Source of the DNA: a virus
Taxonomy: Duplodnaviria; Heunggongvirae; Uroviricota; Caudoviricetes
IMG/VR virus record: IMGVR_UViG_2563366967_000006
DNA: 39,711 nucleotides
Strand: one strand, 5' to 3'
Every line of letters starts with the position of its first letter. Within the stretch, counting starts at the first letter, position 1. This document shows, piece by piece, positions 1 to 39,479 of this stretch. The notes below the pieces were generated by a model, which had not been told where the DNA came from, did no database searches, and saw only the letters and a list, made by a program, of their open reading frames with translations. Position numbers and translations under genes: made by a program.

Positions 1-1143
1 CTATGCTGTTTTGATATCTACGATAATCCAGTCTTTACCACGATCATCATTGTATCGGTCGGTCATTTTTCTGGATTTATGGCCTAACAACTTTTGCGTA
101 TCCAGACCCTGTTCCCGATATAACCGTTCTGACAGAGATCGCTGCTCATGAAATGTGGGCGCAGTTCCTTGCTCCCATTTTATGCCACATTTTTCCCGGG
201 CCTTTTTAAAAGCCGTTGTCAGAGTATTTGCAGAAACCTGGTCTCCTCTGTTTGCTTGAGAGGTAGTGTGACGGTAATGGACCAGATATTTACTAACAAC
301 AGCATCCCTGCACTGAGATATAACTTCACGAAGGGTAATATTCAGAGCATCGCATTTCAGGTTAAGCGGAATAGCAAGTTTTGAACCGGTTTTTTCCTGA
401 GTAATGTGCAACATGTCGTCCCATATATCAGAGAATTTCAAATTGCAGATATCGCCTAAACGTTGTCCAGTAACAAGAGCAAGTAGCATGCCGCATTTTA
501 AATAGGGCTGCCGTCTGCTTACGCTGTCAAATATTGCCTGCCATTCGGGCAGTGATAATCTTTGGCGGTTTACTCGATTTCGCGGTTGTTTTGTTGCCTG
601 CGCTGGGTTAAATCCTGGCGGAACATGTCCTGCGTGTTGTGCTTCTTTGAAGACGTCGATTAACACCATTCTCACGACTTGCGCCATCCTGTTATGACCT
701 TCAGCCTTTACAGCATCAATTATTTCGGCAATATCAAGTGCGGTAATATCCTTGAGGTGTTGTATTCCACAATGCTCACGGAAAAGACGAATGGGTTTGC
801 CTTTTTGCCGATAGGAGTTGGGTCTTAGTTCATTATGTTGCAGCCTGTCCTCCTGGATAGAAATATATTTATCAAGCCATTCTGTCACCGTAATGTCTGA
901 GCGCCTGCCTTTCATTCTTTCCAGACGCTCATTGACGCTTAATATTTGTCGGGTACGTTGTTCAGCAATAATGGTATTTGCTTCAGTAGCAACTTGTTTT
1001 GCTTCATTCTCATCAGTTCCTAAGCTATGAAAACGACCGGATAGTGGATGTTTGTATTGCCAATATACCTTTCCGGTTCGCTTATCTAATTTGCAATATA
1101 AATTGGGTATAGAGATTTTGTGAGATCGGGGTCTAGCAGCCAT
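1..1143 (-). CDS. int: Tyrosine site-specific integrase (lambda Int family)
   Basis: 380-aa ORF; C-terminal block ...TFHEQRSLSERLY...LLGHKSRKMTDRYNDDRGKDW resembles the lambda Int catalytic region (R..H..Y). Overlaps the xis start, as is typical for int-xis. Confidence 0.9.
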   Translation of the reverse strand: MAARPRSHKISIPNLYCKLDKRTGKVYWQYKHPLSGRFHSLGTDENEAKQVATEANTIIAEQRTRQILSVNERLERMKGRRSDITVTEWLDKYISIQEDRLQHNELRPNSYRQKGKPIRLFREHCGIQHLKDITALDIAEIIDAVKAEGHNRMAQVVRMVLIDVFKEAQHAGHVPPGFNPAQATKQPRNRVNRQRLSLPEWQAIFDSVSRRQPYLKCGMLLALVTGQRLGDICNLKFSDIWDDMLHITQEKTGSKLAIPLNLKCDALNITLREVISQCRDAVVSKYLVHYRHTTSQANRGDQVSANTLTTAFKKAREKCGIKWEQGTAPTFHEQRSLSERLYREQGLDTQKLLGHKSRKMTDRYNDDRGKDWIIVDIKTA

Positions 1144-2061: not shown

Positions 2062-2279
2062 TTAATCCCCCTTTGTTTGCGGATAAGCTCCAGATCTTGC
2101 TGGCAACTGGCGCAAGTACGACAACCCTGAACGGCCAGGCGTCTTCGTTCATCTATCGGATCGCCACACTCACAACAATGAGTGGCAGATACAGCCAGGT
2201 AGTTCAGGCGGCGCATTTTTATTGCTGTGTTGCGCTGTAATTCTTCTATTTCTGATGCTGAATCAATGATGTCTGCCAT
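2058..2279 (-). CDS. TraR/DksA-type C4 zinc-finger protein
   Basis: 73-aa ORF with CxxC...CxxC (HCCECGD...CRTCASC), as in phage TraR/DksA-family zinc fingers. Confidence 0.55.
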   Translation of the reverse strand: MADIIDSASEIEELQRNTAIKMRRLNYLAVSATHCCECGDPIDERRRLAVQGCRTCASCQQDLELIRKQRGIK

Positions 2280-2325
2280 CTTTCATTAATCCCTGAACTG
2301 TTGGTTAATACGCTTGAGGGCGAAT

Positions 2326-2356
2326 GCGAATAATAAAAAAGGAGCCTGTAGCTCCA
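2326..2356 (-). terminator. Putative intrinsic terminator (minus strand)
   Basis: Plus strand reads aataataaaaaaggagcctgtagctcc; on the minus strand this is a GGAGC/GCTCC hairpin followed by a T-run, just downstream of the 2378-2659 ORF. Confidence 0.4.
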
Positions 2357-2377
2357 TGATGATTTTGTTTTTCATGT

Positions 2378-2659
2378 TCACCGTTCCTTAAAGACGCCGT
2401 TTAACATGCCGATCGCCAGGCTTAAATGAGTCGGTGTGAATCCCATCAGCGTTACCGTTTCGCGGTGCTTCTTCAGTACGCTACGGCAAATGTCATCGAC
2501 GTTTTTATCCGGAAACTGCTGTCTGGCTTTTTTGATTTCATAATTAGCCTGACGGGCAATACTGCGAAGGGCGTTTTCTTGCTGAGGTGTCATTGAACAA
2601 GTCCCATGTCGGCAAGCATAAGCACACAGAATATGAAGCCCGCTGCCAGAAAAATGCAT
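2378..2659 (-). CDS. Hypothetical prophage protein (start may be the internal Met near 2593)
   Basis: ORF in the leftward operon; the internal Met (MTPQQENALRS...) would give about 71 aa. Confidence 0.4.
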   Translation of the reverse strand: MHFSGSGLHILCAYACRHGTCSMTPQQENALRSIARQANYEIKKARQQFPDKNVDDICRSVLKKHRETVTLMGFTPTHLSLAIGMLNGVFKER

Positions 2660-3012
2660 TCAGTGGTTGTCATACCTGGTCTCTCTCATCTGCTTCTGCT
2701 TTCGCCACCATCATTTCCAGCTTTTGTGAAAGGGATGTGGCTAACGTATGAAATTCTTAGTCTGTTTCTACTGGTATTGGCACAAACCTGACTCCAATTT
2801 GAGCGAGGCTATGTGCCATCTCGATACTCGTTCTTAACTCAACGGGAGATGCTTTGTGCATACAGCCCCTCGTTTATTATTTATCTCCTAAGCCAGCCGC
2901 TGGGCTTTCAGTGGATTTTGGATAACAGAAAGGCCGGGAAATACCCAGTCTCGCTTTGTAACGGAGTAGATGAAAGTGATCGCGCCTACCCGGATATTAT
3001 CGTGAGGGTGCG

Positions 3013-3693: not shown

Positions 3694-4475
3694 GCTGCCA
3701 CCTTCTGCTCTGCGGCTTTCTGTTTCAGGAATCCAAGAGCTTTTACTGCTTCGGCCTGTGTCAGTTCTGACGATGCACGAATGTCGCGGCGAAATATCTG
3801 GGAACAGAGTGGCAATAAGTCGTCATCCCATGTTTTATCCAGGGCGATCAGCAGAGTGTTAATCTCCTGCATGGTTTCATCGTTAACCGGAGTGATGTCG
3901 CGTTCCGGCTGGCGTTCTGCAGTGTATGCAGTATTTTCGACAATGCGCTCGGCTTCATCCTTGTCATAGATACCAGCAAATCCGAAGGCCAGACGGGCAC
4001 ACTGAATCATGGCTTTATGCCGTAACATTCGTTTGGGATGCGACTGCCACGGCCCCGTGATTTCTCTGCCTTCGCGAGTTTTGAATGGTTCGCGGCGGCA
4101 TTCATCCATCCATTCGGTAACGCAGATCGGATGATTACGGTCCTTGCGGTAAATCCGGCATGTACAGGATTCATTGTCCTGTTCAAAGTCCATGCCGTCA
4201 AACTGCTGGTTTTCGTTGATGATGCGGGACCAGCCATCAACGCCCACCACCGGAACGATGCCGTTCTGCTTATCAGGGAAGGCGTAAATTTCTTTCGTCC
4301 ACGGATTAAGGCCGTATTGGTTGGCGACGATCAGCAATGCGATGAACTGCGCATCGCTGGCATCGCCTTTAAATGCTGTCTGGCGAAGAGTGGTGATCAG
4401 TTCCTGTGGGTCGACAGAATCCATGCCGACACGTTCAGCCAGCTTCCCTGCCAGCGTTGCGAGTGCTGTACTCAT
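3690..4475 (-). CDS. bet: Red-beta single-strand annealing protein
   Basis: 261-aa translation ([59 protein letters not shown]...) matches lambda Bet; overlaps exo by 4 nt. Confidence 0.95.
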
Positions 4476-4480
4476 CCGTT

Positions 4481-4777
4481 TTATACCTCTGAATCAATAT
4501 CAACCTGATGGTGAGCAATGGTTTCAACCATGTACCGGATGTGTTCTGCCATGCGCTCCTGAAACTCAACATCGTCATCAAACGCACGGGTAATGGCTTT
4601 TTTGCTGGCCCCGTGGCGTTGCAAATGATCGATGCATAGCGATTCAAACAGGTGCTGGGGCAGGCCTTTTTCCATGTCGTCTGCCAGTTCTGCCTCTTTC
4701 TCTTCACGGGCGATCTGCTGGTAGTGACGCGCCCAGCTTTGAGCCTCAAGACGATCCTGAATGTAATAAGCGTTCAT
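4481..4777 (-). CDS. gam: Gam, host RecBCD nuclease inhibitor
   Basis: 98-aa translation ([21 protein letters not shown]...[10 protein letters not shown]) matches the short form of lambda Gam. Confidence 0.9.
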
Positions 4778-4852
4778 GGCTGAACTCCTGAAAATGGCTG
4801 TGAAAATATCGCCCGCTAAATGCCAGGCTGATTAGGAAAACAGGAAAGGGGA

Positions 4853-5263
4853 TTAGTGATTCAGGCCGTTACCGCGTCCGTCGAGAAAAACTTCCACGAG
4901 CAAATCACGGGTATAAGTGCGCTCGATGCCGCGATGCAGATAAAGCCGTCCGCGTAAATTAGCTGATGCAGTCCAGGTACCATCTTTGTGTTTGACCAGC
5001 ATTCCTGGCATGACCGCACCTCGATTAACGGTCTGCGTTCCGTAATGTTGATGAACCATAAAAACTCCTGCCCGTAAGCTGGGCTGCTGAACATATAGAG
5101 ACTTCTGCGCGTATTCAGGCGGTGGATGGCCGCCGGTTGTCATAACTAAGCCGCCTCGTTGAAGCGACTGAGGTATGAGGTGTTGAGTTGATTTCAGCTG
5201 GTCACACCGACGTTCACACGTCCGTTTCACCCCTCGCACTCCCCGGAGCCTGCTGAAATTCAA
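4853..5263 (-). CDS. Hypothetical early-leftward protein; TTG start at 5263 or ATG start at about 5143 (96 aa)
   Basis: Only ORF between gam and the OL/PL-like operator cluster, where lambda carries kil-cIII-ral-N. The 5263 start is TTG; an in-frame ATG at about 5143 has a GAGG upstream. Arg-rich N-terminal extension. Confidence 0.35.
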   Translation of the reverse strand: MNFSRLRGVRGVKRTCERRCDQLKSTQHLIPQSLQRGGLVMTTGGHPPPEYAQKSLYVQQPSLRAGVFMVHQHYGTQTVNRGAVMPGMLVKHKDGTWTASANLRGRLYLHRGIERTYTRDLLVEVFLDGRGNGLNH

Positions 5264-5490
5264 GCTGCGGATCTAAGCGGTCATCGCAACGGTGAATCAG
5301 GTGGTTGCCGTATCGTTGTGTTGTTGCGATGAACTCATTTAAAACTATAGTTGTTTTACCGTCAACAACAAAAGTTGTTTCATTGGTTGTTTTAGATATA
5401 ACTGGTTGTATTTAGGATGGATTTATTTTGTGACTTGCATCGCATAGCGATAACTGAAGCGGGGGGTATGGTGGTTTTTTGAACGGTGTG
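5264..5490. promoter_or_regulatory. OL/PL-like operator-promoter cluster
   Basis: Several GGTTGT/ACAACC half-sites and inverted repeats (gttgtt...aacaac, aacaacaaaagttgtt, tggttgtt, ctggttgta), the same half-site as in the cI-cro intergenic region. Confidence 0.45.
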
Positions 5491-5499
5491 TGATGAGGG

Positions 5500-5528
5500 G
5501 AGGCAAAAGAAAACCCGGCACGACGGCC
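5500..5528 (-). terminator. Putative intrinsic terminator downstream of the membrane-protein gene
   Basis: Plus strand reads gcaaaagaaaacccggcacgacggccggg; on the minus strand this is a CCCGGC/GCCGGG hairpin followed by TTTTCTTTTG, directly after the stop at 5540. Confidence 0.5.
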
Positions 5529-5539
5529 GGGGAGGGGGG

Positions 5540-6046
5540 TCATTTTAATCTATCAAGGAGTGACTCTCTTTCCTTCTTCTCTGATTCTCTTCGGTTTAAT
5601 AACGCTTTAAACTCTTGAAGCTCAACCATTATTTTATGAACGAATACACTGGTATAGAGAGAAATAAAGAGTAATCCACCTGAAATTTTTAAGACCCTGA
5701 AGAGTAGGGCTTGATCATTTGTGCTTGCTATTAACCCCAAGATTACAAACAAAGTTGAAAATACATAGAAAGCTAATAATAAAACCAATTTCAGTCTCTT
5801 GGATTTGACTATTGGCACTAATCGCCTAACCTCACTAGGGGTTAAAGACGAGTGGTCATTGGCCTCATTTGCCTTAAAAATGGCTTGTATACAATATGAT
5901 AATGGCAATTGCATGAGTCCAACCACAGCCCACGGAGCAGTTAGGACAACACCCGGTGTAATATAGCCCAATGCTGACTTGAACAAAAAGTAACCAGCAA
6001 AATAGAAGACCAACATACCAATAAGGTGGATGATGTTCGATTTCAT
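5540..6046 (-). CDS. Unknown multi-pass membrane protein (168 aa, about 4 hydrophobic segments, charged C-terminal tail), second gene of the cassette in the rexB position
   Basis: Four long hydrophobic stretches followed by a charged tail (RRESEKKERESLLDRLK). Strong RBS (aaaaggaggg) 21 nt after the upstream gene's stop. AT-rich. Confidence 0.8.
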   Translation of the reverse strand: MKSNIIHLIGMLVFYFAGYFLFKSALGYITPGVVLTAPWAVVGLMQLPLSYCIQAIFKANEANDHSSLTPSEVRRLVPIVKSKRLKLVLLLAFYVFSTLFVILGLIASTNDQALLFRVLKISGGLLFISLYTSVFVHKIMVELQEFKALLNRRESEKKERESLLDRLK

Positions 6047-7212: not shown

Positions 7213-7902
7213 CTACCCATGCTTCCTGTAGGTCTGCGGCATGCTCCCAATAACTTTCCCGAAGATAAACACCCGGTTCATCTCGTCTTTCTCAATTGGG
7301 TCCCACGGCGAGTAGCTCTTGTTATCAGAGATAACCAGTAGCTTATCCTTCATCATTTGCAGGCGCTTTACATGGGCTGTGTCGTCGTACAGAAACGCAT
7401 AGATACCATCACCGTCGAAAGATTTAACTGTGATATCAACGAACAGCAGATCACCTGGTTCGATCGTTCCTGACATGCTGTCACCACGCACGTTAATGAT
7501 GCGGATATTTTCCGCCTTCCTACCATCGAACATGTGACGAGCATCGTCAAACGAGTACTCAACCGAGCGTAGAACTTCTACAAACTCACGGTTGATGACT
7601 CCCGGCCCAGCACTGACTTCTATATCAAGAACGTCAATCTTAAAGTATTTGGAATGGCTGACAGTTGATAGTATTGGTTGCACTGTACTGTCTGACATAT
7701 TTCCAACGCCAGAAGATAACCATTCTGCGCGCACACCCAAAGCGTTCGCGATCTCCACGATTTTAGTTGTTTGGTTAGCTTTCCCTGTTTCGATTTTCTG
7801 AATAGCAGCTTGGCTAACCCCGACCAAATCCCCAAGCGCCTTTTGTGTAAGGCCTCGCGCTAATCTGGCTTCTTTAAGTCTTTCTGAGAGTGTTGTTTTC
7901 AT
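7213..7902 (-). CDS. cI: CI-type prophage repressor (HTH plus S24/LexA-like peptidase)
   Basis: N-terminal HTH (LTQKALGDLVGVSQAAIQKIETGK) and C-terminal peptidase-like domain with GDSM. The likely start is the internal ATG at 7902 (MKTTLSERL...); the ORF track extends to 7968. Not lambda cI. Confidence 0.85.
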   Translation of the reverse strand: MKTTLSERLKEARLARGLTQKALGDLVGVSQAAIQKIETGKANQTTKIVEIANALGVRAEWLSSGVGNMSDSTVQPILSTVSHSKYFKIDVLDIEVSAGPGVINREFVEVLRSVEYSFDDARHMFDGRKAENIRIINVRGDSMSGTIEPGDLLFVDITVKSFDGDGIYAFLYDDTAHVKRLQMMKDKLLVISDNKSYSPWDPIEKDEMNRVFIFGKVIGSMPQTYRKHG

Positions 7903-8006
7903 AGTCCAAATGTACAACCAAGGTTTTATTCCATCAAACGAAAATGGTTGTTGACTAAAAACAACCATAGTTTTAATCTTGATTCAAATTAACCACGGAG
8001 GTTGTT
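7903..8006. promoter_or_regulatory. OR/PRM/PR-like divergent operator-promoter region
   Basis: Inverted repeat ATGGTTGTT-7 nt-AACAACCAT at 7944-7968 overlapping a TTGACT -35-like hexamer, plus further ACAACCA/GGTTGTT half-sites near 7914-7925 and 7990-8005; RBS ggagg before the cro-like start. Confidence 0.55.
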
Positions 8007-8306: not shown

Positions 8307-8846
8307 ATGCAACCACTTACATACCAACAGACTAGCGGATTTAGCCCGACTGCGGTGATAAATCGTTCTCAAACAAAACAGGTGCCAGGCCACGAAAAAA
8401 TCCGTGATGCCGTCCGCGCCTGGTCGGCTGAAGATAATCAGGATGTCGTTGCCACACTCATTGTGAATGAGTATCGGGAGCAGGGCGGCGGCGCCATCGA
8501 TTTCCCTGATGATGTCAGCCGTGCACGCCAGAAGCTGTTCCGCTTCCTCGATAACAAATTCGATTCTGAAAAATACCGAAATAACGTGCGTGAACTGACC
8601 CCGGCAATTCTGGCGGTACTACCGCTGGAATATCGCGGTTACCTGGTTGAGCAGGATAGCTTCATGGCTAGGTTGGCTGAAATGGAAAAGGAACTCAGTG
8701 AGGCAAAACAGGCTGTCATTCTCAACGCACCACGCCACCAGAAACTGAAGGAGATGAGTGAAGGTATTGTGTCGATGTTTCGTGTGGACCCGGATCTGGC
8801 TGGTCCATTGATGGCGATGGTTACCACCATGTTGGGGGCAATATGA
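8307..8846 (+). CDS. CII-position early regulatory protein, possibly YdaT-like
   Basis: 179-aa ORF between the cro-like gene and O; the family name is a tentative recollection (motif PAILAVLPLEYRGY). Confidence 0.55.
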   Translation: MQPLTYQQTSGFSPTAVINRSQTKQVPGHEKIRDAVRAWSAEDNQDVVATLIVNEYREQGGGAIDFPDDVSRARQKLFRFLDNKFDSEKYRNNVRELTPAILAVLPLEYRGYLVEQDSFMARLAEMEKELSEAKQAVILNAPRHQKLKEMSEGIVSMFRVDPDLAGPLMAMVTTMLGAI

Positions 8847-13125: not shown

Positions 13126-13210
13126 AGTCAGAGATAACAATCAACTAATACTGTTTTGTTGATTTTTGCTTGTAATTGGCGTTCTGGTCTGATTTTTGTG
13201 GAGTAAGTTG

Positions 13211-13594
13211 ATGCGTGATATTCAGATGGTTCTTGAGCGTTGGGGTGCGTGGGCGGCTAATAATCATGAAGATGTGACCTGGTCGTCCATTGCCGCCGGT
13301 TTTAAGGGATTAATTCCTTCAAAAGTAAAATCTCGCCCGCAATGTTGTGACGATGACGCGATGATCATTTGCGGGTGCATGGCCCGTCTGAAAAAGAACA
13401 ACAGCGATTTACACGATTTATTAGTAGATTATTATGTATGTGGTATGACATTCATGTCACTGGCAAGTAAGCATTGCTGCTCGGATGGTTATATCGGGAA
13501 AAGGTTACAGAAGGCTGAGGGCATAATTGAAGGGATGTTAATGGCATTAGATATCCGGTTAGATATGGATATCGTTGCTAATAATTCTAATTGA
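13211..13594 (+). CDS. Q: Late-gene antiterminator Q
   Basis: Translation [31 protein letters not shown]...[16 protein letters not shown] matches DLP12 QuuD-type Q as I recall it; the track ORF starts at 13196. Confidence 0.85.
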
Positions 13595-13782: not shown

Positions 13783-14865
13783 TTAGAACTGATAAACCAG
13801 ACCTACAGCGACGATGTCGTCGGTATCAATACCAGCTGTTTTGGTAAACTTACTATCGTCAATTAAGTTGATTTTGTAATCAACAAAAGTGGACATGTTT
13901 TTATTAAAGTAGTAAGTAGCACCGACATCGACATACTTGACTAAGTCTCGGTCACCATGAACACCAAGGTCTTTACCTTTTGACTGAAGGTAAGCAACAG
14001 ATGGACGCAGACCGAAGTCAAACTGATATTGTGCTACTGCTTCAAAGTTTTGTGCTTTGTTTGCAATATGGTTATTACCAAAAACGGTCATATTCTGAGT
14101 TTCAGAATATGTGGTAGCCAGATAGATATTGTTCGCATCATATTTCAGGCCTGCAGCCCATACTTCCGCATTTTTGCCGGAGGCATTGAATTTGCTCTTA
14201 CCATAGGCGACCTGACCGTCAGTGCGATCTGATTTAGCATAGGTTGCACCCACGCCGAATCCTTCATACTCATAAGTAGTGGAGAAACCGAAACCATCAC
14301 CATTGGCTTCAGTTACGTCAGTGCGGTCATTTTTACCCTGATACTGAGCAGCAAAGTTCAGGCCATCGACCAGACCAAAGAAGTCGTTGTTACGATAAGT
14401 TGCAACACCAGTAGTGCGACCAGTCATGAACACATCTGTTTGGGTCCAGGTATCACCACCGAATTCTGGCAGAACGTCAGTCCACGCACCGATGTCGTAT
14501 GCTACACCGTAGTTACGGCCGTAATCGATTGAGCCGTAATCACCAAATTTCAGGCCTGCAAATGCAAGACGGGTTTTGTCTTTGGAAGAACCTTGAGATT
14601 CAGCACGGTTGCCTTTGAATTCATATTCCCACTGACCGAAACCAGTCAGTTGATCGTTGATTTGGGTTTCACCTTTGAAGCCAAGACGGGCATAAGTAGT
14701 ATCACCATCATCTGCATCATTAGAGGAGAAGTAGTGCTTGGCATTAACTTTCCCGTATAGATCCAGCTTGTTACTGTCTTTATTATAAATTTCAGCTGCC
14801 TGAGCAGACATCGCCATCAGTACTGATGCAGCTACAGCAGAAATTGCCACTGTTAATTTTTTCAT
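13783..14865 (-). CDS. nmpC: OmpC-family porin (NmpC-like moron)
   Basis: Signal peptide [23 protein letters not shown] then AEIYNKD...; C-terminal VGLVYQF beta-barrel signature. Start taken at internal ATG 14865; the track ORF runs to 14925. Confidence 0.85.
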
Positions 14866-15453
14866 TGTACGCCCTTTTTTTGAACTATTATTAAAAAATG
14901 ATGTCACTGCGCGATAAATATTCATCTAATCAATGTGATTATTTCAAGATGTAAGTTTTAGTTTCTCATTTAATTTGTGAAGTAGATCTCTATTTTTATC
15001 GGAACCTTTTCTATCTAATCCTATTCATGGCTCTTGTCTGAACAAAAATAAATCTATTAGCTAATTTATATTAATGGCACTTATTTATAAGTGCTCTATA
15101 ATTCTTTAGCTTAATTTAAACAAACTAAAAATAACATCGGAAATTATTAACTGGTTATTTGTTGAAGTTTTCTTATGCATTTGTGGTGGTGTTTTGAACA
15201 CTCGGTGGCATTCTCACAAATATCATTTAGTAGTTTACGTACGTAAAAAATTGGTTATGCTGTTAAGAGTGGTTACTTCGTCACACAGCTTAAACCCGCC
15301 GTCGAGCGGGTTTTTCCATTTTTTGAGTCTCGATATTAGCTGATAACCCAATACCTGAGTTATTCACTGACTCCGAATCTGTTACGTTTCTGCCTTTATT
15401 GCGATACGTAGTATCCCCTTAATTTACACCCGCTTTGTCTGCGAGGTGGGGTT

Positions 15454-15669
15454 ATGAAATCCATGGATAAGTTAACAACGGGTGTCGCCTATGGTACCTC
15501 AGCAGGTAGTGCCGGGTACTGGTTTTTACAGTTGCTCGATAAAGTCACGCCCTCACAGTGGGCGGCAATAGGTGTGCTGGGTAGCCTGGTATTTGGCCTG
15601 CTGACGTACCTGACAAACCTTTATTTCAAGATTAAAGAAGATAAGCGCAAGGCTGCGAGAGGTGAATAA
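15454..15669 (+). CDS. Phage-21-type pinholin (class II holin) with dual-start motif
   Basis: 71-aa [24 protein letters not shown]...; two TM segments; Met1-Lys-Ser-Met4 fits the antiholin/holin dual-start arrangement of S21/EssD. Confidence 0.85.
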
Positions 15670-16166
15670 TGCCTCCATCATTACGAAAAGCCGTTGCTGC
15701 TGCTATTGGTGGCGGAGCAATTGCTATAGCATCAGTGTTAATCACTGGCCCAAGTGGTAACGATGGTCTGGAAGGTGTCAGCTACATACCATACAAAGAT
15801 ATTGTTGGTGTATGGACTGTATGTCACGGGCATACAGGAAAAGACATCATGCTCGGTAAAACGTATACCAAAGCAGAATGCAAAGCACTCCTGAATAAAG
15901 ACCTTGCCACTGTCGCCAGACAAATTAACCCGTACATCACAGTCGATATACCGGAAACAACGCGCGGCGCTCTTTACTCATTCGTTTACAACGTGGGTGC
16001 TGGTAATTTCAGAACATCGACGCTTCTTCGCAAAATAAACCAGGGCGATATCAAAGGCTCATGTGATCAGCTACGTCGCTGGACATATGCTGGCGGTAAG
16101 CAATGGAAAGGTCTCATGACTCGTCGTGAGATTGAGCGTGAAATCTGTTTGTGGGGTCAGCAATGA
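15669..16166 (+). CDS. SAR endolysin (phage lysozyme, R21-like)
   Basis: N-terminal Gly/Ala-rich weakly hydrophobic segment ([20 protein letters not shown]) followed by a lysozyme domain; overlaps the holin stop. Confidence 0.85.
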
Positions 16167-16624
16167 ACAGAGTAACCGCGATTATCTCCGCTCTGGTTAT
16201 CTGCATCATCGTCTGCCTGTCATGGGCTGTTAATCATTACCGTAATAACGCCATTACCTACAAAGCCCAGCGCGACAAAAATGCCAGAGAACTGAAGCTG
16301 GCGAACGCGGCAATTACTGACATGCAGATGCGTCAGCGTGATGTTGCTGCGCTCGATGCAAAATACACGAAGGAGTTAGCTGATGCGAAAGCTGAAAATG
16401 ATGCTCTGCGTGATGATGTTGCCGCTGGTCGTCGTCGGTTGCACATCAAAGCAGTCTGTCAGTCAGTGCGTGAAGCCACCACCGCCTCCGGCGTGGATAA
16501 TGCAGCCTCCCCCCGACTGGCAGACACCGCTGAACGGGATTATTTCACCCTCAGAGAGAGGCTGATCACTATGCAAAAACAACTGGAAGGAACCCAGAAG
16601 TATATTAATGAGCAGTGCAGATAG
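16163..16624 (+). CDS. Rz: Rz i-spanin
   Basis: N-terminal TM then coiled-coil periplasmic domain; start taken at MNRVTAII; the track ORF starts at 16151. Confidence 0.8.
16383..16565 (+). CDS. Rz1: Rz1 o-spanin lipoprotein, embedded in Rz in the +1 frame
   Basis: Lipobox VVGC and proline-rich mature region ([22 protein letters not shown]), fully inside Rz. Confidence 0.8.
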
Positions 16625-16655
16625 AGCTGCCCATATCGATGGGCAACTCATGCAA

Positions 16656-16949
16656 TTATTGTGAGCAATACACACGCGCTTCCAGCGGAGTATAAATGCC
16701 TAAAGTAATAAAACCGAGCAATCCATTTACGAATGTTTGCTGGGTTTCTGTTTTAACAACATTTTCTGCACCACCACAAATTTTTGCTGCATCGACAGTT
16801 TTCTTCTGCCCAATTCCCGAAACGAAGAAATGATGGGTGATGGTTTCCTTTGGTGTTACTGCTGTAGGTTTGTTTCCAACAGTAAACGTCTGTTGAGCAC
16901 ATCCTGTAATAAGCATTGCCAGAGCGGCAGAAAACAACATTTTTTTCAT
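16656..16949 (-). CDS. bor: Bor outer-membrane lipoprotein (serum-resistance moron)
   Basis: MKKMLFSAALAMLITGCAQQTFTV...EARVYCSQ matches lambda Bor; start taken at internal ATG 16949. Confidence 0.85.
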   Translation of the reverse strand: MKKMLFSAALAMLITGCAQQTFTVGNKPTAVTPKETITHHFFVSGIGQKKTVDAAKICGGAENVVKTETQQTFVNGLLGFITLGIYTPLEARVYCSQ

Positions 16950-17429
16950 CTTATTATCCTGCATTGTTAAAAACGGCAGAATCCTATGTGACAACAATTA
17001 AACGATAGTTAAATGGATTGATGAAAATTAAAACTACACAGGTGGGCTCAGACTATTGGAGGAAGTTGGGGACACTCAGAATCCTGTGGAATGAAATAAA
17101 CCGGTCTATCCGTCCATTACCCTTTTAGCTGCGCTGTATCGTCGCCGTATTCCCGCATTAACCATGACCGTAGCCCGACGGGGAATTCCTTCTGCGTGAG
17201 TGTGCGGGAATAATTAAAAACGATGCACACCGGGTTTTTACCGCGTTAATGATTCGCGGGTTTATCCCGGTGCGATGGTGGAAGAAACAGGAAGCTGTAT
17301 TACAGAAAGTGCTACTACTGTATCCCGATGCGATGTATGTAATGTGAGTCAGATAATGGCACAGGATGTGGTGATGTGGCAGTCTGGAACACAGGATATA
17401 TTGTCAGAATAAGACCCGTAGGAATAAAA

Positions 17430-17756
17430 ATGAAAAGACGCCTTTTACTACTTTTTCTGTTATCTGTCCTGGCAGTGGGATGCTCGCAGCAAAAAGCTGA
17501 TGAGCCCCGGCAATTAGTGACGGTGTATCCACGATATCCGGAATATGCTGCAGCAAATTATATCAAGGGGCTGGTTGAGGTTAAGTTCGATATTGGTGCT
17601 GATGGGACTGTGACACGGATCGTTTTTCTCCGCTCAGAGCCTCATAATTTGTTTCGTGATGAAGTGGTGAAGGCCATGGCGAAATGGCGATTTGAAAAGA
17701 ATCGCCCCTGTCAGGGAGTGAAGAGACAATTTATCTTTACGCCGTCACGTCCTTGA
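17430..17756 (+). CDS. Lipoprotein with TonB C-terminal-like domain (moron)
   Basis: Signal peptide with lipobox (LLSVLAVGCSQQ), then a TonB-C-like pattern (P.YP..A....G.V.V.F.I..DG.V.......S.......E...AM..W.F). Start taken at internal ATG (MKRRLLLL); the track ORF starts at 17376. Confidence 0.6.
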   Translation: MKRRLLLLFLLSVLAVGCSQQKADEPRQLVTVYPRYPEYAAANYIKGLVEVKFDIGADGTVTRIVFLRSEPHNLFRDEVVKAMAKWRFEKNRPCQGVKRQFIFTPSRP

Positions 17757-17878
17757 TGCTTCCAGATAGAGAGGGGCTGGAAGCAGGAGAAAAATGAAAG
17801 AGCCAGCGGTTATATTTTTGTCATGGCTGACGAGGAATGATGGAAGAAGGCGTTGTATGCCACACAACGCCTCACTGT

Positions 17879-18232
17879 TCATTTCTTCTTTTTCTCTGGT
17901 GGAACCCGATGAATAAGAGTTGCACTGGTTTCCGATGAGATGGCGATATACTCGGGCAAAGTATGCTGGCAGTTTTCCAACTGGTCAAAAATACCTGCTC
18001 TCGTCTGTTGCAATGCCTGCAGCATGCGGCGGCAATGTGCCTTGCTTTTACTAACCATCTTTCCTTCCTCTATCAGTCGCTGCGTGAACTCATCATGGAA
18101 TACCAGGTAAATGCGGATGTTATCGGTTTTGGCTACGCAGCATAGTACAAAACGGGCAGGTGCATCCCGGGACGGGGGAGGCGTCACATGTCCCTGTGAT
18201 GGTTGTTCCGGGTAATGTACTGTGTGGGGCAT
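17879..18232 (-). CDS. Hypothetical protein (possibly shorter, from the internal Met near 18058)
   Basis: ORF only; conflicts with the 18120-18371 ORF over the overlap. Confidence 0.25.
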   Translation of the reverse strand: MPHTVHYPEQPSQGHVTPPPSRDAPARFVLCCVAKTDNIRIYLVFHDEFTQRLIEEGKMVSKSKAHCRRMLQALQQTRAGIFDQLENCQHTLPEYIAISSETSATLIHRVPPEKKKK

Positions 18233-18371
18233 AAAAATGTCCGATAATTTTACTTTCTACCGCAGTTAGTTGATTCGTTGGTCCTGGTAGCACATTGGGC
18301 GAGGATTTAAATGCCAGGCAACTGAAGGATGATGTCGCAAGGGAGATAGCGAGAATATTTCTGATTTTCAT
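18120..18371 (-). CDS. Hypothetical small secreted protein (~84 aa)
   Basis: Internal ATG gives MKIRNILAISLATSSFSCLA signal-peptide-like N-terminus with an RBS (agagg) upstream; overlaps the 17879-18232 ORF, so only one of the two is likely real over the shared stretch. Confidence 0.35.
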   Translation of the reverse strand: MKIRNILAISLATSSFSCLAFKSSPNVLPGPTNQLTAVESKIIGHFYAPHSTLPGTTITGTCDASPVPGCTCPFCTMLRSQNR

Positions 18372-18439
18372 TTGATGATGCCTCTGTGTGAAATGACGGT
18401 AAACGACGCACTTGTGCCGGCACATAATAGCAAGCACCA

Positions 18440-18707
18440 TAATAGATCAGATTCGATTCTTGCTGTAAGTGATAATTATTCTCGTTTTCGGGTCCTTTCC
18501 GTCGATCCAACAGGTTACGGGGCGGCGACCTCGCGGGTTTTCGCTATTTATGAAATTTTTCCGGGGAAAATCATGTCGGTACTTCTCGAACATAACTATT
18601 TGTTTTTTCTAATATCGAATCCGTAAAAGGTCCGACATGAAAACGCCTAAAAAAGTCATTTTCGGGCACTTTCATGTCGGACCCTGTATTTATTGTGAGA
18701 CTGTTTC
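18440..18707 (+). other. cos site (cosQ-cosN-cosB); the 12-nt cohesive end GGGCGGCGACCT is at 18520-18531
   Basis: ...gatccaacaggttacg|gggcggcgacctcgcgggttttcgctatttatgaaa... matches the junction of the lambda right and left ends; immediately upstream of Nu1. Confidence 0.85.
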
Positions 18708-19227
18708 ATGAAGGTTAATAAAAAGAAACTTGCCGAAATTTTCAACGTGGATCCGCGAACGATTGAACGCTGGCAGTCTCAGGGACTCCCTTGCGTCTCC
18801 GGAGGTAGTAAGGGCGTTGAATCTGTATTTGATACCGCCATGGCAATTCAGTGGTATGCGCAGAGGGAAGCTGATATCGAAAATGAAAAACTCCGTAAAG
18901 AGGTTGAGGATTACAGGGCTGCCAGCGAGGCAGATCTCCAGCCTGGGACTATTGAGTACGAACGCCATCGACTTACGCGTGCGCAGGCCGACGCACAGGA
19001 GCTGAAAAATGCCAGAGACTCCGCTGAAGTAGTGGAAACCGCATTCTGTACTTTCGTGCTGTCGCGGATCGCAGGTGAAATTGCCAGTATTCTCGACGGG
19101 ATCCCCCTGTCGGTGCAGCGGCGTTTTCCGGAACTGGAAAACCGACATGTTGATTTCCTGAAACGGGATATCATCAAAGCCATGAACAAAGCAGCCGCGC
19201 TGGATGAACTGATACCGGGGTTGCTGA

Positions 19228-19253
<26 letters not shown>
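18708..19253 (+). CDS. nu1: Terminase small subunit Nu1
   Basis: 181-aa translation is near-identical to lambda Nu1 (…[60 protein letters not shown]…). Confidence 0.95.
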
Positions 19254-25805
<6,552 letters not shown>

Positions 25806-35996: not shown

Positions 35997-38900
35997 ATGG
36001 GTAAAGGCAGCAGTAAGGGGCATACCCCGCGCGAAGCGAAGGACAACCTGAAGTCCACGCAGTTGCTGAGTGTGATCGATGCCATCAGCGAAGGGCCGGT
36101 TGAAGGTCCGGTGGATGGATTAAAAAGCGTGCTGCTGAACAGTACGCCGGTGCTGGACACTGAGGGGAATACCAACATATCCGGTGTCACGGTGGTGTTC
36201 CGGGCAGGTGAGCAGGAGCAGACTCCGCCGGAGGGGTTTGAATCCTCCGGTTCCGAGACGGTGCTCGGTACAGAAGTGAAATATGACACGCCGATCACCC
36301 GGACCATCACGTCGGCAAACATTGACCGTCTGCGTTTTACTTTCGGCGTGCAGACACTGGTGGAAACCACCTCAAAGGGGGACAGGAATCCGTCGGAAGT
36401 CCGCCTGCTGGTTCAGATACAGCGTAACGGTGGCTGGGTGACGGAAAAAGACATCACCATTAAGGGCAAAACCACCTCGCAGTATCTGGCCTCGGTGGTG
36501 GTGGGTAACCTGCCGCCGCGCCCGTTTAATATCCGGATGCGCAGGATGACGCCGGACAGCACCACAGACCAGCTGCAGAACAAAACGCTCTGGTCGTCAT
36601 ACACCGAAATCATCGATGTGAAACAGTGCTACCCGAACACGGCACTGGTCGGCGTGCAGGTGGACTCGGAACAGTTCGGCAGTCAGCAGGTGAGCCGTAA
36701 TTATCATCTTCGCGGGCGCATTCTGCAGGTGCCGTCGAACTATAACCCGCAGACGCGGCAATACAGCGGTATCTGGGACGGAACGTTTAAGCCAGCATAC
36801 AGCAACAACATGGCCTGGTGTCTGTGGGATATGCTGACCCATCCGCGCTACGGCATGGGGAAACGTCTCGGTGCGGCGGATGTGGACAAATGGGCGCTGT
36901 ATGTCATCGGCCAGAATTGCGACCAGTCGGTGCCGGATGGCTTTGGTGGCACGGAGCCGCGCATCACCTGTAATGCCTGGCTGACCACACAGCGTAAGGC
37001 GTGGGATGTGCTCAGTGATTTCTGCTCGGCGATGCGCTGTATGCCGGTATGGAACGGACAGACGCTGACATTCGTGCAGGACCGACCATCGGATAAGGTG
37101 TGGACCTATAACTGCAGTAATGTGGTGATGCCGGATGATGGTGCGCCGTTCCGCTACAGCTTCAGCGCCCTGAAAGACCGCCATAATGCCGTTGAGGTGA
37201 ACTGGATTGACCCGGATAACGGCTGGGAGACGGCGACAGAGCTTGTGGAGGACACGCAGGCCATTGCCCGTTACGGTCGTAACGTCACGAAGATGGATGC
37301 CTTTGGCTGTACCAGTCGGGGGCAGGCACACCGCGCCGGGCTGTGGCTGATTAAAACGGAGCTGCTGGAAACGCAGACCGTGGACTTCAGCGTGGGCGCA
37401 GAAGGGCTTCGCCATGTACCGGGCGATGTCATTGAAATCTGCGATGATGACTATGCGGGTATCAGCATCGGCGGGCGCGTGCTGGCGGTGAACAGCCAGG
37501 CGCGGACACTGACGCTCGACCGTGAAATCATGCTGCCATCCTCCGGCACCACGCTGATAAGCCTGGTTGACGGAAATGGCAATCCGGTCAGCGTGGAGGT
37601 CCAGTCCGTCACCGACGGCGTGAAGGTGAAAGTTAGCCGTGTTCCTGACGGCGTTGCCGGATACAGCGTGTGGGGGCTGAAGCTGCCGACGCTGCGCCAG
37701 CGCCTGTTCCGCTGCGTGAGTATCCGTGAGAACGACGACGGCACGTATGCCATCACCGCCGTGCAGCATGTACCGGAAAAAGAAGCCATCGTGGATAACG
37801 GGGCGCACTTTGACGGCGACCAGAGCGGCACGGTGAATGGTGTCACGCCGCCAGCAGTGCAGCACCTGACTGCCGAAGTCACCGCAGACAGCGGGGAGTA
37901 TCAGGTACTGGCCCGCTGGGACACGCCGAAGGTGGTGAAGGGCGTGAGTTTCATGCTTCGCCTGACCGTGGCAGCGGATGACGGCAGTGAGCGGCTGGTC
38001 AGCACAGCCCGGACGGCGGAAACCACATACCGCTTCACACAACTGGCGCTGGGGAACTACAGGCTGACAGTCCGGGCAGTAAATGCGTGGGGGCAGCAGG
38101 GCGATCCGGCATCGGTATCGTTCCGGATTGCCGCACCGGCAGCGCCGTCGCAGATTGAGCTGACACCGGGGTATTTTCAGATAACCGCCACGCCGCATCT
38201 TGCGGTTTATGATCCGACGGTACAGTTTGAGTTCTGGTTCTCGGAAAAGCGGATTGCGGATATCAGGCAGGTTGAAACCACAGCACGCTATCTTGGCACG
38301 GCGCTGTACTGGATAGCCGCCAGTATCAATATCAAACCGGGCCATGATTATTATTTTTACATCCGCAGTGTGAACACCGTTGGCAAATCGGCATTTGTGG
38401 AGGCTGTTGGCCAGCCGAGTGATGATGCATCCGGCTATCTGAATTTTTTCAAAGGAGAGATAGGGAAAACCCATCTGGCTCAGGAGTTGTGGACGCAGAT
38501 TGATAACGGTCAGCTTGCGCCTGACCTGGCTGAAATCAGGACGTCCATTACGGGTGTCAGCAATGAAATCACGCAGACCGTCAATAAGAAACTGGAAGAC
38601 CAGAGTGCAGCGATCCAGCAGATACAGAAGGTTCAGGTTGATACAAATAATAACCTGAACAGCATGTGGGCTGTGAAGCTGCAGCAGATGCAGGACGGAC
38701 GCCTTTATATCGCGGGTATTGGTGCCGGTATTGAGAATACTCCTGACGGTATGCAGAGTCAGGTGCTGCTGGCGGCGGACAGGATTGCGATGATTAATCC
38801 TGCGAATGGCAACACAAAGCCGATGTTTGTTGGGCAGGGCGATCAGATATTCATGAACGAAGTGTTCCTGAAATATCTGACGGCTCCCACCATTACCAGC

Positions 38901-39479
38901 GGTGGCAATCCCCCAACGTTTTCACTGACACCTGATGGTCGACTTTCTGCGAAAAATGCGGATATCAGCGGTAACGTGAACGCGAACTCCGGGACGCTCA
39001 ACAACGTCACGATTAATCAGAACTGTCGGATTCTGGGAAAACTGTCAGCTAACCAGATTGAAGGTGATATTGTCAAAACGGTGGGAAAAGCCTTTCCGAG
39101 AAATGGCAGTTATGCCAGCGGTACAATAACGGTCACTGTGTACGATGACCAGGCTTTTGACCGTCAGATAGTAGTCCCCCCCGTTCTGTTTCGTGGGGGT
39201 AAGCATGAAAACTTCAACAGCAACAACCAACAGTCATACTGGTATTCAACCTGTAAGCTGCAGGTACTGAAGAACGGACAGGAAATCTTTCAGCAACCCG
39301 CGACGGATGTCAGCAGGGTATTTTCATCAGTCATTGATATGCCTGCCGGACACGGCCATGTCACCCTGACTTTCAATGTTTCTTCATATGGTGCTAATAA
39401 CTGGACGCCAACGACCAGTATCAGCGACCTTCTTGTTGTTGTGATGAAGAAATCTACAGCCGGTATCAGTATCAGTTGA
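35997..39479 (+). CDS. J: Central tail fibre / host-specificity protein J, with a divergent C-terminal domain
   Basis: N-terminal ~800 aa nearly identical to lambda J ([34 protein letters not shown]…); from roughly [14 protein letters not shown] onward it departs from the lambda J sequence as I recall it. Confidence 0.95.

Follow-up and report, generated by a model that had tools for sequence, protein, structure and literature searches.

A lipoprotein gene beside cos and its TonB C-terminal domain

The stretch of DNA analyzed here, IMG/VR virus record IMGVR_UViG_2563366967_000006 (Caudoviricetes; 39,711 nucleotides (nt), hereafter the window), is an integrated lambdoid prophage of the phage 21 type with prophage gene order, and it carries a gene for a small lipoprotein whose mature part is a TonB C-terminal domain (TonB_C). 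The initial annotation had placed this gene at 17376–17756, between bor and cos. Its position relative to these landmarks was borne out (bor at 16656–16949 on the minus strand, cosQ at 18490–18496), and an open reading frame (ORF) covering 17376–17756 is present on the plus strand. However, the GTG at 17376 is merely the first possible start; the true start is almost certainly the ATG at 17430, which has AGGA upstream and yields the same product of 108 amino acids (aa) as phage 21 CPT_21_73 and RefSeq WP_000830178.1. The gene has the following features.

17430–17756, plus strand: coding sequence of the TonB_C lipoprotein, 108 aa, stop codon included (ORF, Pfam TonB_C, phage 21 and RefSeq genes)
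17420–17423, plus strand: ribosome-binding site AGGA (from the sequence; annotated as such in phage 21)
17430–17483, plus strand: signal peptide, residues 1–17, and Cys18, the predicted site of lipidation (lipobox A-V-G-C, Ser19 at +2)
17484–17504, plus strand: tether SQQKADE, residues 19–25 (ungapped mapping, HMMER alignment to 2gsk_B, lower model confidence)
17505–17744, plus strand: TonB C-terminal domain, residues 26–105, corresponding to residues 153–232 of Escherichia coli TonB (AlphaFold2, Foldseek, residue mapping)

The N-terminus, MKRRLLLLFLLSVLAVGC, consists of a positively charged n-region (MKRR), a Leu-rich hydrophobic core and the lipobox AVGC18 followed by Ser19, with no Asp at +2, in agreement with the lipoprotein assignment made initially. 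The lipobox was kept in all alleles and relatives inspected (variants LVMGC, FLMGC, LLLGC and LISAC), and Cys18 was invariant in 12–22 relatives, distant ones included. The residue at +2 decides Lol-dependent sorting of lipoproteins, with Ser leading to the outer membrane; since Ser19 occupies this position, the protein is predicted to be sorted to the outer membrane. Pro26, the residue after the tether, equals TonB Pro153 and is the first one aligned with the crystallised TonB domain.

The initial annotation had also read a TonB C-terminal pattern in the mature part and had proposed a profile and structure search for the fold. The quoted motif is present except for one Gly, which is Tyr44 here, and both kinds of search gave the expected answer. 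The protein matched Pfam TonB_C (PF03544; E = 7.3e-13, 49.2 bits against a cutoff of 24.6) and TIGR01352 (47.4 bits against a cutoff of 27.1), and phmmer aligned it to the E. coli TonB chains 1u07, 2gsk_B and 2grx_C with E values of about 1e-14. NCBIfam TonB equivalog models aligned over model residues ~150–240, with scores (PRK10819 included) of 45–69 bits, below their cutoffs of 265–448. In an ungapped alignment to E. coli TonB 150–235, for which the TonB sequence was checked on eleven residue numbers from the literature, 33 of the 86 positions were identical (38%). An AlphaFold2 model built on 22 sequences showed a predicted local distance difference test score (pLDDT) of ~97 across residues 30–108 and lower values in the tether. 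By Foldseek, the top structural match of this model was 1u07, a 92-residue TonB fragment (root mean square deviation (rmsd) 1.5 Å), along with 2gsk_B, TonB in the BtuB complex (rmsd 1.0 Å over 79 residues, template modelling score 0.92), and 2grx_C, TonB in the FhuA complex (rmsd 0.9 Å over 75 residues), all with probability 1.00 and with the three-stranded sheet packed on helices. The significant matches in the PDB were exclusively TonB chains or the TonB homologue FusB.

At the residue level, the YP motif corresponds to Y36 and P37, and the final strand (residues 94–103) is intact and aligns with TonB 221–230. The TonB residues P161, Y163, P164, F180, G186, F202, W213 and F230 are kept, Y215 is replaced by Phe, and the last ~4 residues of TonB are absent. 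Assignment of the mature part to the TonB C-terminal domains goes well beyond what chance would give. In comparison with E. coli TonB (P02929, C-terminal ~150–239), the protein has the same fold (rmsd 0.9–1.5 Å), the YP motif, G186 and the aromatic cluster, whereas its lipid anchor would lie in the opposite membrane, and both the N-terminal anchor with His20 and the proline-rich spacer are absent, the 7-residue tether standing in place of the latter. Lacking a transmembrane anchor, the spacer and any link to ExbB/ExbD, the protein cannot transduce energy, and although it has a TonB_C domain it does not count as a TonB.

Identification of the domain is not new, since phage 21 CPT_21_73 is already annotated as 'TonB C-terminal domain protein' and WP_000830178.1 as 'TonB family protein'. 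Full-text searching of the literature returned no functional study of this protein, and the announcement of the phage 21 genome passes over the gene. In the papers searched, no description was found of its predicted topology as an outer-membrane lipoprotein, of its constant slot behind the lysis genes or of the TolA_C counterpart on bacteriocin plasmids described below.

Distribution, genomic slot and expression

An identical or near-identical gene was found in 1225 of the 5426 complete E. coli genomes, and the gene is present in the extraintestinal pathogen strain 536. In each of the 80 loci retrieved from IMG/VR the 108-aa ORF was intact, and four variants of the protein occurred among them. 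Comparison of the two main alleles, at 72% identity, gave a dS (synonymous substitutions per site) of ~1.5, i.e. saturated synonymous sites, and a ratio of nonsynonymous to synonymous rates (dN/dS) of 0.12; judged from these substitutions, the gene is under purifying selection as a protein. It is not a recent scrap of a host gene, because the nearest full-length TonBs are only ~40–47% identical. By an exhaustive profile-free search, a family of 107–133-aa proteins was recovered, which consist of a lipobox or signal peptide and TonB_C at 35–46% identity; its clusters are named from Salmonella, Klebsiella, Gibbsiella, Rahnella, Erwinia and Pantoea, and the signature SEPxHLFD is common to several genera. 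A profile search of genome contigs gave four loci.

In four unrelated phage lineages the gene closely follows the lysis cassette, has the orientation of the late genes and precedes the terminase genes.

Phage 21 type: pinholin, signal-arrest-release (SAR) endolysin, Rz/Rz1 and lambda-type terminase
JLK-2012/Stx1a-phage type: HNH endonuclease and a different terminase
Klebsiella phage ST13-OXA48phi12.4: gene after the lysis cassette and before the terminase
Salmonella prophages: holin_3_1, GH19 endolysin and DUF2514 spanin, with a gap of 133 bp from the lysis genes to the gene

In the Salmonella prophage, an o-spanin is embedded within the DUF2514 gene. Relatives also occur on Klebsiella, Pantoea and Salmonella plasmids and in chromosomes, where the Raoultella one adjoins genes for a Spy/ZraP-like protein, a glycine-zipper lipoprotein and DUF1440/YagU, and the Erwinia one adjoins ara genes. 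The gene for the inner-membrane protein DUF1440/YagU recurs near TonB_C lipoprotein genes, namely in the Raoultella chromosome (locus L085, 7738–8301), in the Klebsiella phage (L083, 1277–1903) and on a Klebsiella IncFII plasmid (L095, 10163–10777); this recurrence could be a functional link or a coincidence.

Between both E. coli alleles, a hairpin (CCGCG-9 nt-CGCGG at 17238–17258; ~3780–3800 of locus L084, which holds the other allele) and ~250 bp of upstream non-coding DNA are likewise conserved, so that the gene moves as a ~600-bp cassette. A 45-aa ORF annotated in phage 21 (17275–17412) was considered and set aside as probably non-coding: its frame is not kept in the JLK-2012 allele despite homologous DNA.

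The late transcription unit encloses the gene and runs in the same direction, and a scan of the window detected no terminator-like site on the plus strand between the lysis genes and the TonB_C gene. Inside the late unit and with no separating terminator, the gene must, on this arrangement, be made during lytic growth; the same scan found no terminator of its own. A weak candidate for an extended −10 element (TGTCAGAAT; 17402–17410, plus strand) lies 20 bp 5′ of the ATG and is homologous to a stronger site of the JLK-2012 allele (ATGACC-16-TAGAAT with TG). The Salmonella and Klebsiella lineages have promoter-like sites 15–35 bp 5′ of the gene. Counts of promoter-like sites upstream of the gene were not above those of shuffled controls. 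The weak element may give low expression in lysogens. On the opposite strand, a strong promoter-like site is located within the TonB_C gene (17557–17584, minus strand: TTAACC-16-TATAAT with TG), and the other E. coli allele has an 11/12 match at the same codons (L084, 4128–4155, minus strand). Since it is missing from the Salmonella and Klebsiella alleles, this antisense site is probably a by-product of the AANYIKG codons.

The surroundings of the gene in the window are as follows; bor/iss and cos are given for context only.

1–1143, minus strand: integrase
7213–7968, minus strand: CI-like repressor
13196–13594: Q antiterminator
13783–14925, minus strand: porin gene
15454–16624: pinholin, SAR endolysin and Rz/Rz1
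16151–16624: Rz, with Rz1 embedded at 16383–16565
16656–16949, minus strand: bor/iss lipoprotein gene, left neighbour (Pfam Lambda_Bor, E = 1e-30; PHROG 260; existing annotation)
18490–18519, plus strand: cosQ and cohesive end (cos), right boundary of the low-GC cargo segment (phage 21 identity, cosQ annotation, GC content)
18708–21153: terminase genes Nu1 and A
Up to 39479: head and tail genes through J, with J at 35997–39479

The alignment with phage 21, which is 99.8% identical at its right end to 17000–18519, maps cosQ to 18490–18496 and the cohesive end to ~18519. GC content is 40–47% over 16650–18750 and ~45% in the region of the TonB_C gene, compared with 52–55% in the flanking terminase genes. 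Many lambdoid phages have only the bor-proximal ~240 bp in common with this region and lack the TonB_C gene. In these respects the gene has the make-up of a moron, i.e. a non-essential insertion of atypical composition between conserved modules. No PADLOC defence-system model matched the TonB_C gene or the adjacent small ORFs, and a search for RNA families between bor and Nu1 gave sub-threshold chance matches only.

Several other genes of the prophage deserve mention. The porin gene between Q and the holin is full-length (Pfam Porin_1, E = 2e-151) and bears the annotation OmpC in the prophage of E. coli 536; together with bor/iss and the TonB_C lipoprotein, as sorted by prediction, it makes three outer-membrane cargo genes in this prophage. 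Between the TonB_C gene and cos there are two minus-strand ORFs, one of 59 aa (17882–18058; PHROG 4843 match, E = 3e-46) and one of 83 aa (18123–18371), which starts with a clear signal peptide (MKIRNILAISLATSSFSCLA) and is rich in Cys towards its C-terminus; over 17882–18371, phage 21 and RefSeq annotate small plus-strand ORFs instead. In the early region, a gene for a YdaT-toxin-domain protein (8307–8846, plus strand; Pfam E = 1.5e-29) adjoins the repressor gene.

TolA_C and TonB_C pairs on bacteriocin plasmids

Exported C-terminal domains of the other import transducer, TolA, were encountered on related elements. On Klebsiella IncFII plasmids, a TonB_C lipoprotein gene lies a few kb from a gene for a 123-aa lipoprotein (lipobox LLTAC) whose mature part is the TolA C-terminal domain (TolA_C; Pfam TolA, E = 2e-24). 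This TolA_C lipoprotein was found in 705 plasmid records, many of those listed being ~10-kb ColRNAI plasmids. In p69-3, the single ColRNAI plasmid inspected, its gene overlaps by 4 nt a gene for a 121-aa protein consisting of a signal peptide and TonB_C, and the pair is divergent from a cloacin/colicin-E3-type bacteriocin operon. The coordinates on plasmid and phage are given below.

Klebsiella plasmid NZ_CP025459 (locus L097; 10-kb ColRNAI), 2115–2848, minus strand: TolA_C/TonB_C pair
The same plasmid, 3694–5880: bacteriocin operon
Coliphage mEp460_ev081 (locus L096), 4997–5425 and 5576–5971: TolA-type ORFs

In the lambdoid coliphage mEp460_ev081, a gene for a TolA_C lipoprotein of 142 aa (lipobox IIIGC) stands in tandem with another TolA-like ORF, and both are located between Q and the lysis genes; a TolA-type lipoprotein was searched for in the window and none was found. 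In CloDF13, the unrelated genes K and L occupy the slot of the plasmid TolA_C/TonB_C pair. Like the window protein, the members of the Klebsiella plasmid pair and the mEp460_ev081 protein are orphan C-terminal transducer domains with an export signal or lipobox, borne by mobile elements. The TonB_C protein of the plasmid shows 34% identity to that of the window but has an ordinary signal peptide in place of a lipobox, while the plasmid and phage TolA_C proteins belong to another Pfam family (PF06519). Mobile elements thus repeatedly carry exported, motor-less copies of both domains that bacteriocins and several phages engage for entry.

A possible decoy for TonB boxes and the alternatives

In FhuA and BtuB co-crystals, the TonB box adds a β-strand to the C-proximal three-stranded sheet of TonB (PMC9249621). 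The reading that we favour, with a confidence somewhat short of even, is that the lipoprotein is an outer-membrane-tethered, motor-less TonB decoy which competes for TonB boxes. An anchor in the inner leaflet of the outer membrane and a leash of only seven residues would hold the domain at the periplasmic openings of TonB-dependent transporters, from which the TonB boxes protrude. The domain could bind there and yet could not pull, there being no ExbB/ExbD coupling, and for this reason it would be expected to compete with TonB for the TonB boxes of FhuA, FepA, Cir and BtuB, as well as for those of entering group B colicins. From this would follow a partial, dominant-negative jamming of TonB-dependent import, which may confer tolerance to TonB-dependent bacteriocins and to phages requiring energised TonB (T1 and phi80) at a cost in siderophore and B12 uptake. 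The beneficiary would be the lysogen or the infected cell, protected against other phages and bacteriocins. Infection by T5 is not known to require TonB, so that T5, which the initial annotation had named among the phages to try, would be a control and not a predicted target unless FhuA were also occluded. Purifying selection, the conserved slot in four lineages and the TonB_C/TolA_C pairing on bacteriocin plasmids lend circumstantial support to a decoy, which is plausible.

There are laboratory precedents for such an effect. TonB C-terminal fragments exported to the periplasm reportedly inhibit transport by FhuA and FecA, phi80 and colicin M, and further artificial fragments of this domain are said to have been made. 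The mature window protein corresponds almost exactly to the 92-residue fragment of 1u07. The artificial fragments were soluble, overexpressed constructs, whereas the window protein is natural, carries a lipobox for lipid anchoring, has diverged from TonB and is carried by mobile elements.

The nearest functional parallels among phage proteins are Llp and Cor, outer-membrane lipoproteins which act on the periplasmic face of FhuA (bioRxiv 10.64898/2026.03.26.714494). The window protein resembles Llp (T5) and Cor (phi80, N15 and HK022) in being a small phage lipoprotein, predicted to sit in the inner leaflet of the outer membrane, with exclusion or tolerance as the predicted outcome; Llp and Cor are, by contrast, specific for FhuA and guard against the phage's own kind, whereas the TonB_C lipoprotein would act on any TonB box. 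Homology to them was rejected: no match to PHROG 1119 (Cor) was obtained at E ≤ 1, no match among viral structures (BFVD) at E ≤ 0.001, and Llp (PDB 8A60) was not among the PDB fold matches listed. We rate the protein as a putative natural, re-anchored dominant-negative TonB, which would be a functional analogue of Cor/Llp while being unrelated to them.

Several observations weigh against a decoy. Residues tied genetically or structurally to TonB-box or transporter contact are replaced in the window protein (Q160 by Tyr, or by Leu in the other allele, Q162 by Arg, R158 by Thr and R166 by Tyr). A standard promoter scan of the plus strand of the window found none that was convincing. A Fur box is absent as well: the 440 bp preceding the gene hold at best an 11/19 match, against a background of 209 such sites in the window, and iron regulation by Fur was rejected since this match is no better than that background. 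A strong block of TonB would deprive the host of iron, but many strains carry the gene, 536 included; any effect must therefore be weak, conditional or selective. The ordinary chromosomal surroundings of some relatives suggest that the family may have a housekeeping role in the envelope. LamB is not TonB-dependent, and a phage that uses LamB offers no self-exclusion logic. The C-terminus of J shows 99.6% identity to J proteins of phage 21 and of the lambda type, i.e. the tail tip is of the LamB type, and LamB is listed as a phage 21 receptor (PMC12803456); self-exclusion in the Cor/Llp sense, which had been suggested initially, was therefore dismissed as unlikely.

Such an envelope role, structural or stress-related, is in our estimate unlikely. 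The protein would then be a generic periplasmic binding module for peptidoglycan or an envelope protein, tying or buffering the outer membrane as fitness cargo like Bor/Iss, with no part for TonB boxes. The Raoultella neighbours, the recurrence of DUF1440 near the relatives in the Klebsiella phage and plasmid, and the outer-membrane nature of the other prophage cargo (porin and Bor) are in line with it, as are the loss of Q160, R158 and R166 and the capacity of TonB homologues to bind other proteins (FusB with ferredoxin, 9hi3). It is countered by retention of the whole TonB-box-binding architecture at 1 Å rmsd, by the pairing with a TolA_C lipoprotein on bacteriocin plasmids, which indicates import machinery, and by the searches of Pfam and NCBIfam, in which no peptidoglycan-binding family was detected.

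It is improbable that the protein is a late lytic accessory, modulating outer-membrane disruption or silencing receptors late rather than benefiting the lysogen. The slot directly 3′ of the lysis cassette in four lineages with different holins, endolysins and spanins would suit this role, and so would the short Salmonella gap and the lack of a plus-strand terminator-like site after the lysis genes in the window. This slot is, however, a classic lambdoid cargo site, as for bor; plasmid and chromosomal relatives have no lysis genes nearby, and with LamB as the receptor, shielding of progeny from debris does not apply. PHROG 1267, which matches 17430–17753, is labelled 'Rz-like spanin', which is a further point for a lytic role, but the label seems to be a mistaken annotation carried over from 'lipoprotein downstream of the lysis genes'. 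O-spanins are not known to have TonB_C folds. The protein is not the missing spanin, because complete i-/o-spanin pairs are already present both in the window (Rz/Rz1) and in the Salmonella prophage, and o-spanin identity was rejected.

Similarly doubtful is a decoy-like phenotype with another partner, in which the target would be host TonB itself, whose C-terminus would be trapped at the outer membrane in a heterodimer formed via the aromatic cluster. Conservation of the aromatic residues (F180, F202, W213, Y215, which is Phe here, and F230) and the dimers seen in crystals of the isolated C-terminus of TonB (1u07) speak for it, but these aromatics are also core residues of the fold, which makes their conservation uninformative, and the crystal dimers have been reported to be absent in vivo (PMC3005593). 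Lastly, a functionless remnant of a captured tonB fragment, as suggested by the older annotations 'partial tonB-like membrane protein' and 'TonB fragment' and by truncated copies in some genomes, is hardly credible, being effectively refuted by the low dN/dS at saturated synonymous divergence and the intactness of all 80 viral copies, along with the acquired and conserved lipoprotein signal peptide, an identity to E. coli TonB too low for a recent fragment and the signature common across genera.

Beyond the single gene, it is conceivable, though we consider it rather unlikely, that temperate phages, bacteriocin plasmids and conjugative plasmids of Enterobacterales share an unrecognised defence, in which exported orphan C-termini of TonB and TolA, often lipid-anchored, would serve as decoys and the window gene would be the TonB arm. 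If so, TonB and TolA decoys would jam both import routes used by bacteriocins and many phages.

The gene of the TonB_C lipoprotein is carried by phage 21, a classic phage, and by roughly one in five complete E. coli genomes, extraintestinal pathogens included, and its relatives reach Salmonella, Klebsiella and plant-associated Enterobacterales. If it does encode a decoy for TonB boxes, the protection would not depend on the receptor, since a single protein would blunt all colicins, microcins and phages that rely on TonB. The decoy would at the same time be a built-in modulator of iron uptake in pathogens, and would alter the efficacy of siderophore-conjugate antibiotics and of TonB-dependent phage or bacteriocin therapeutics against lysogens.

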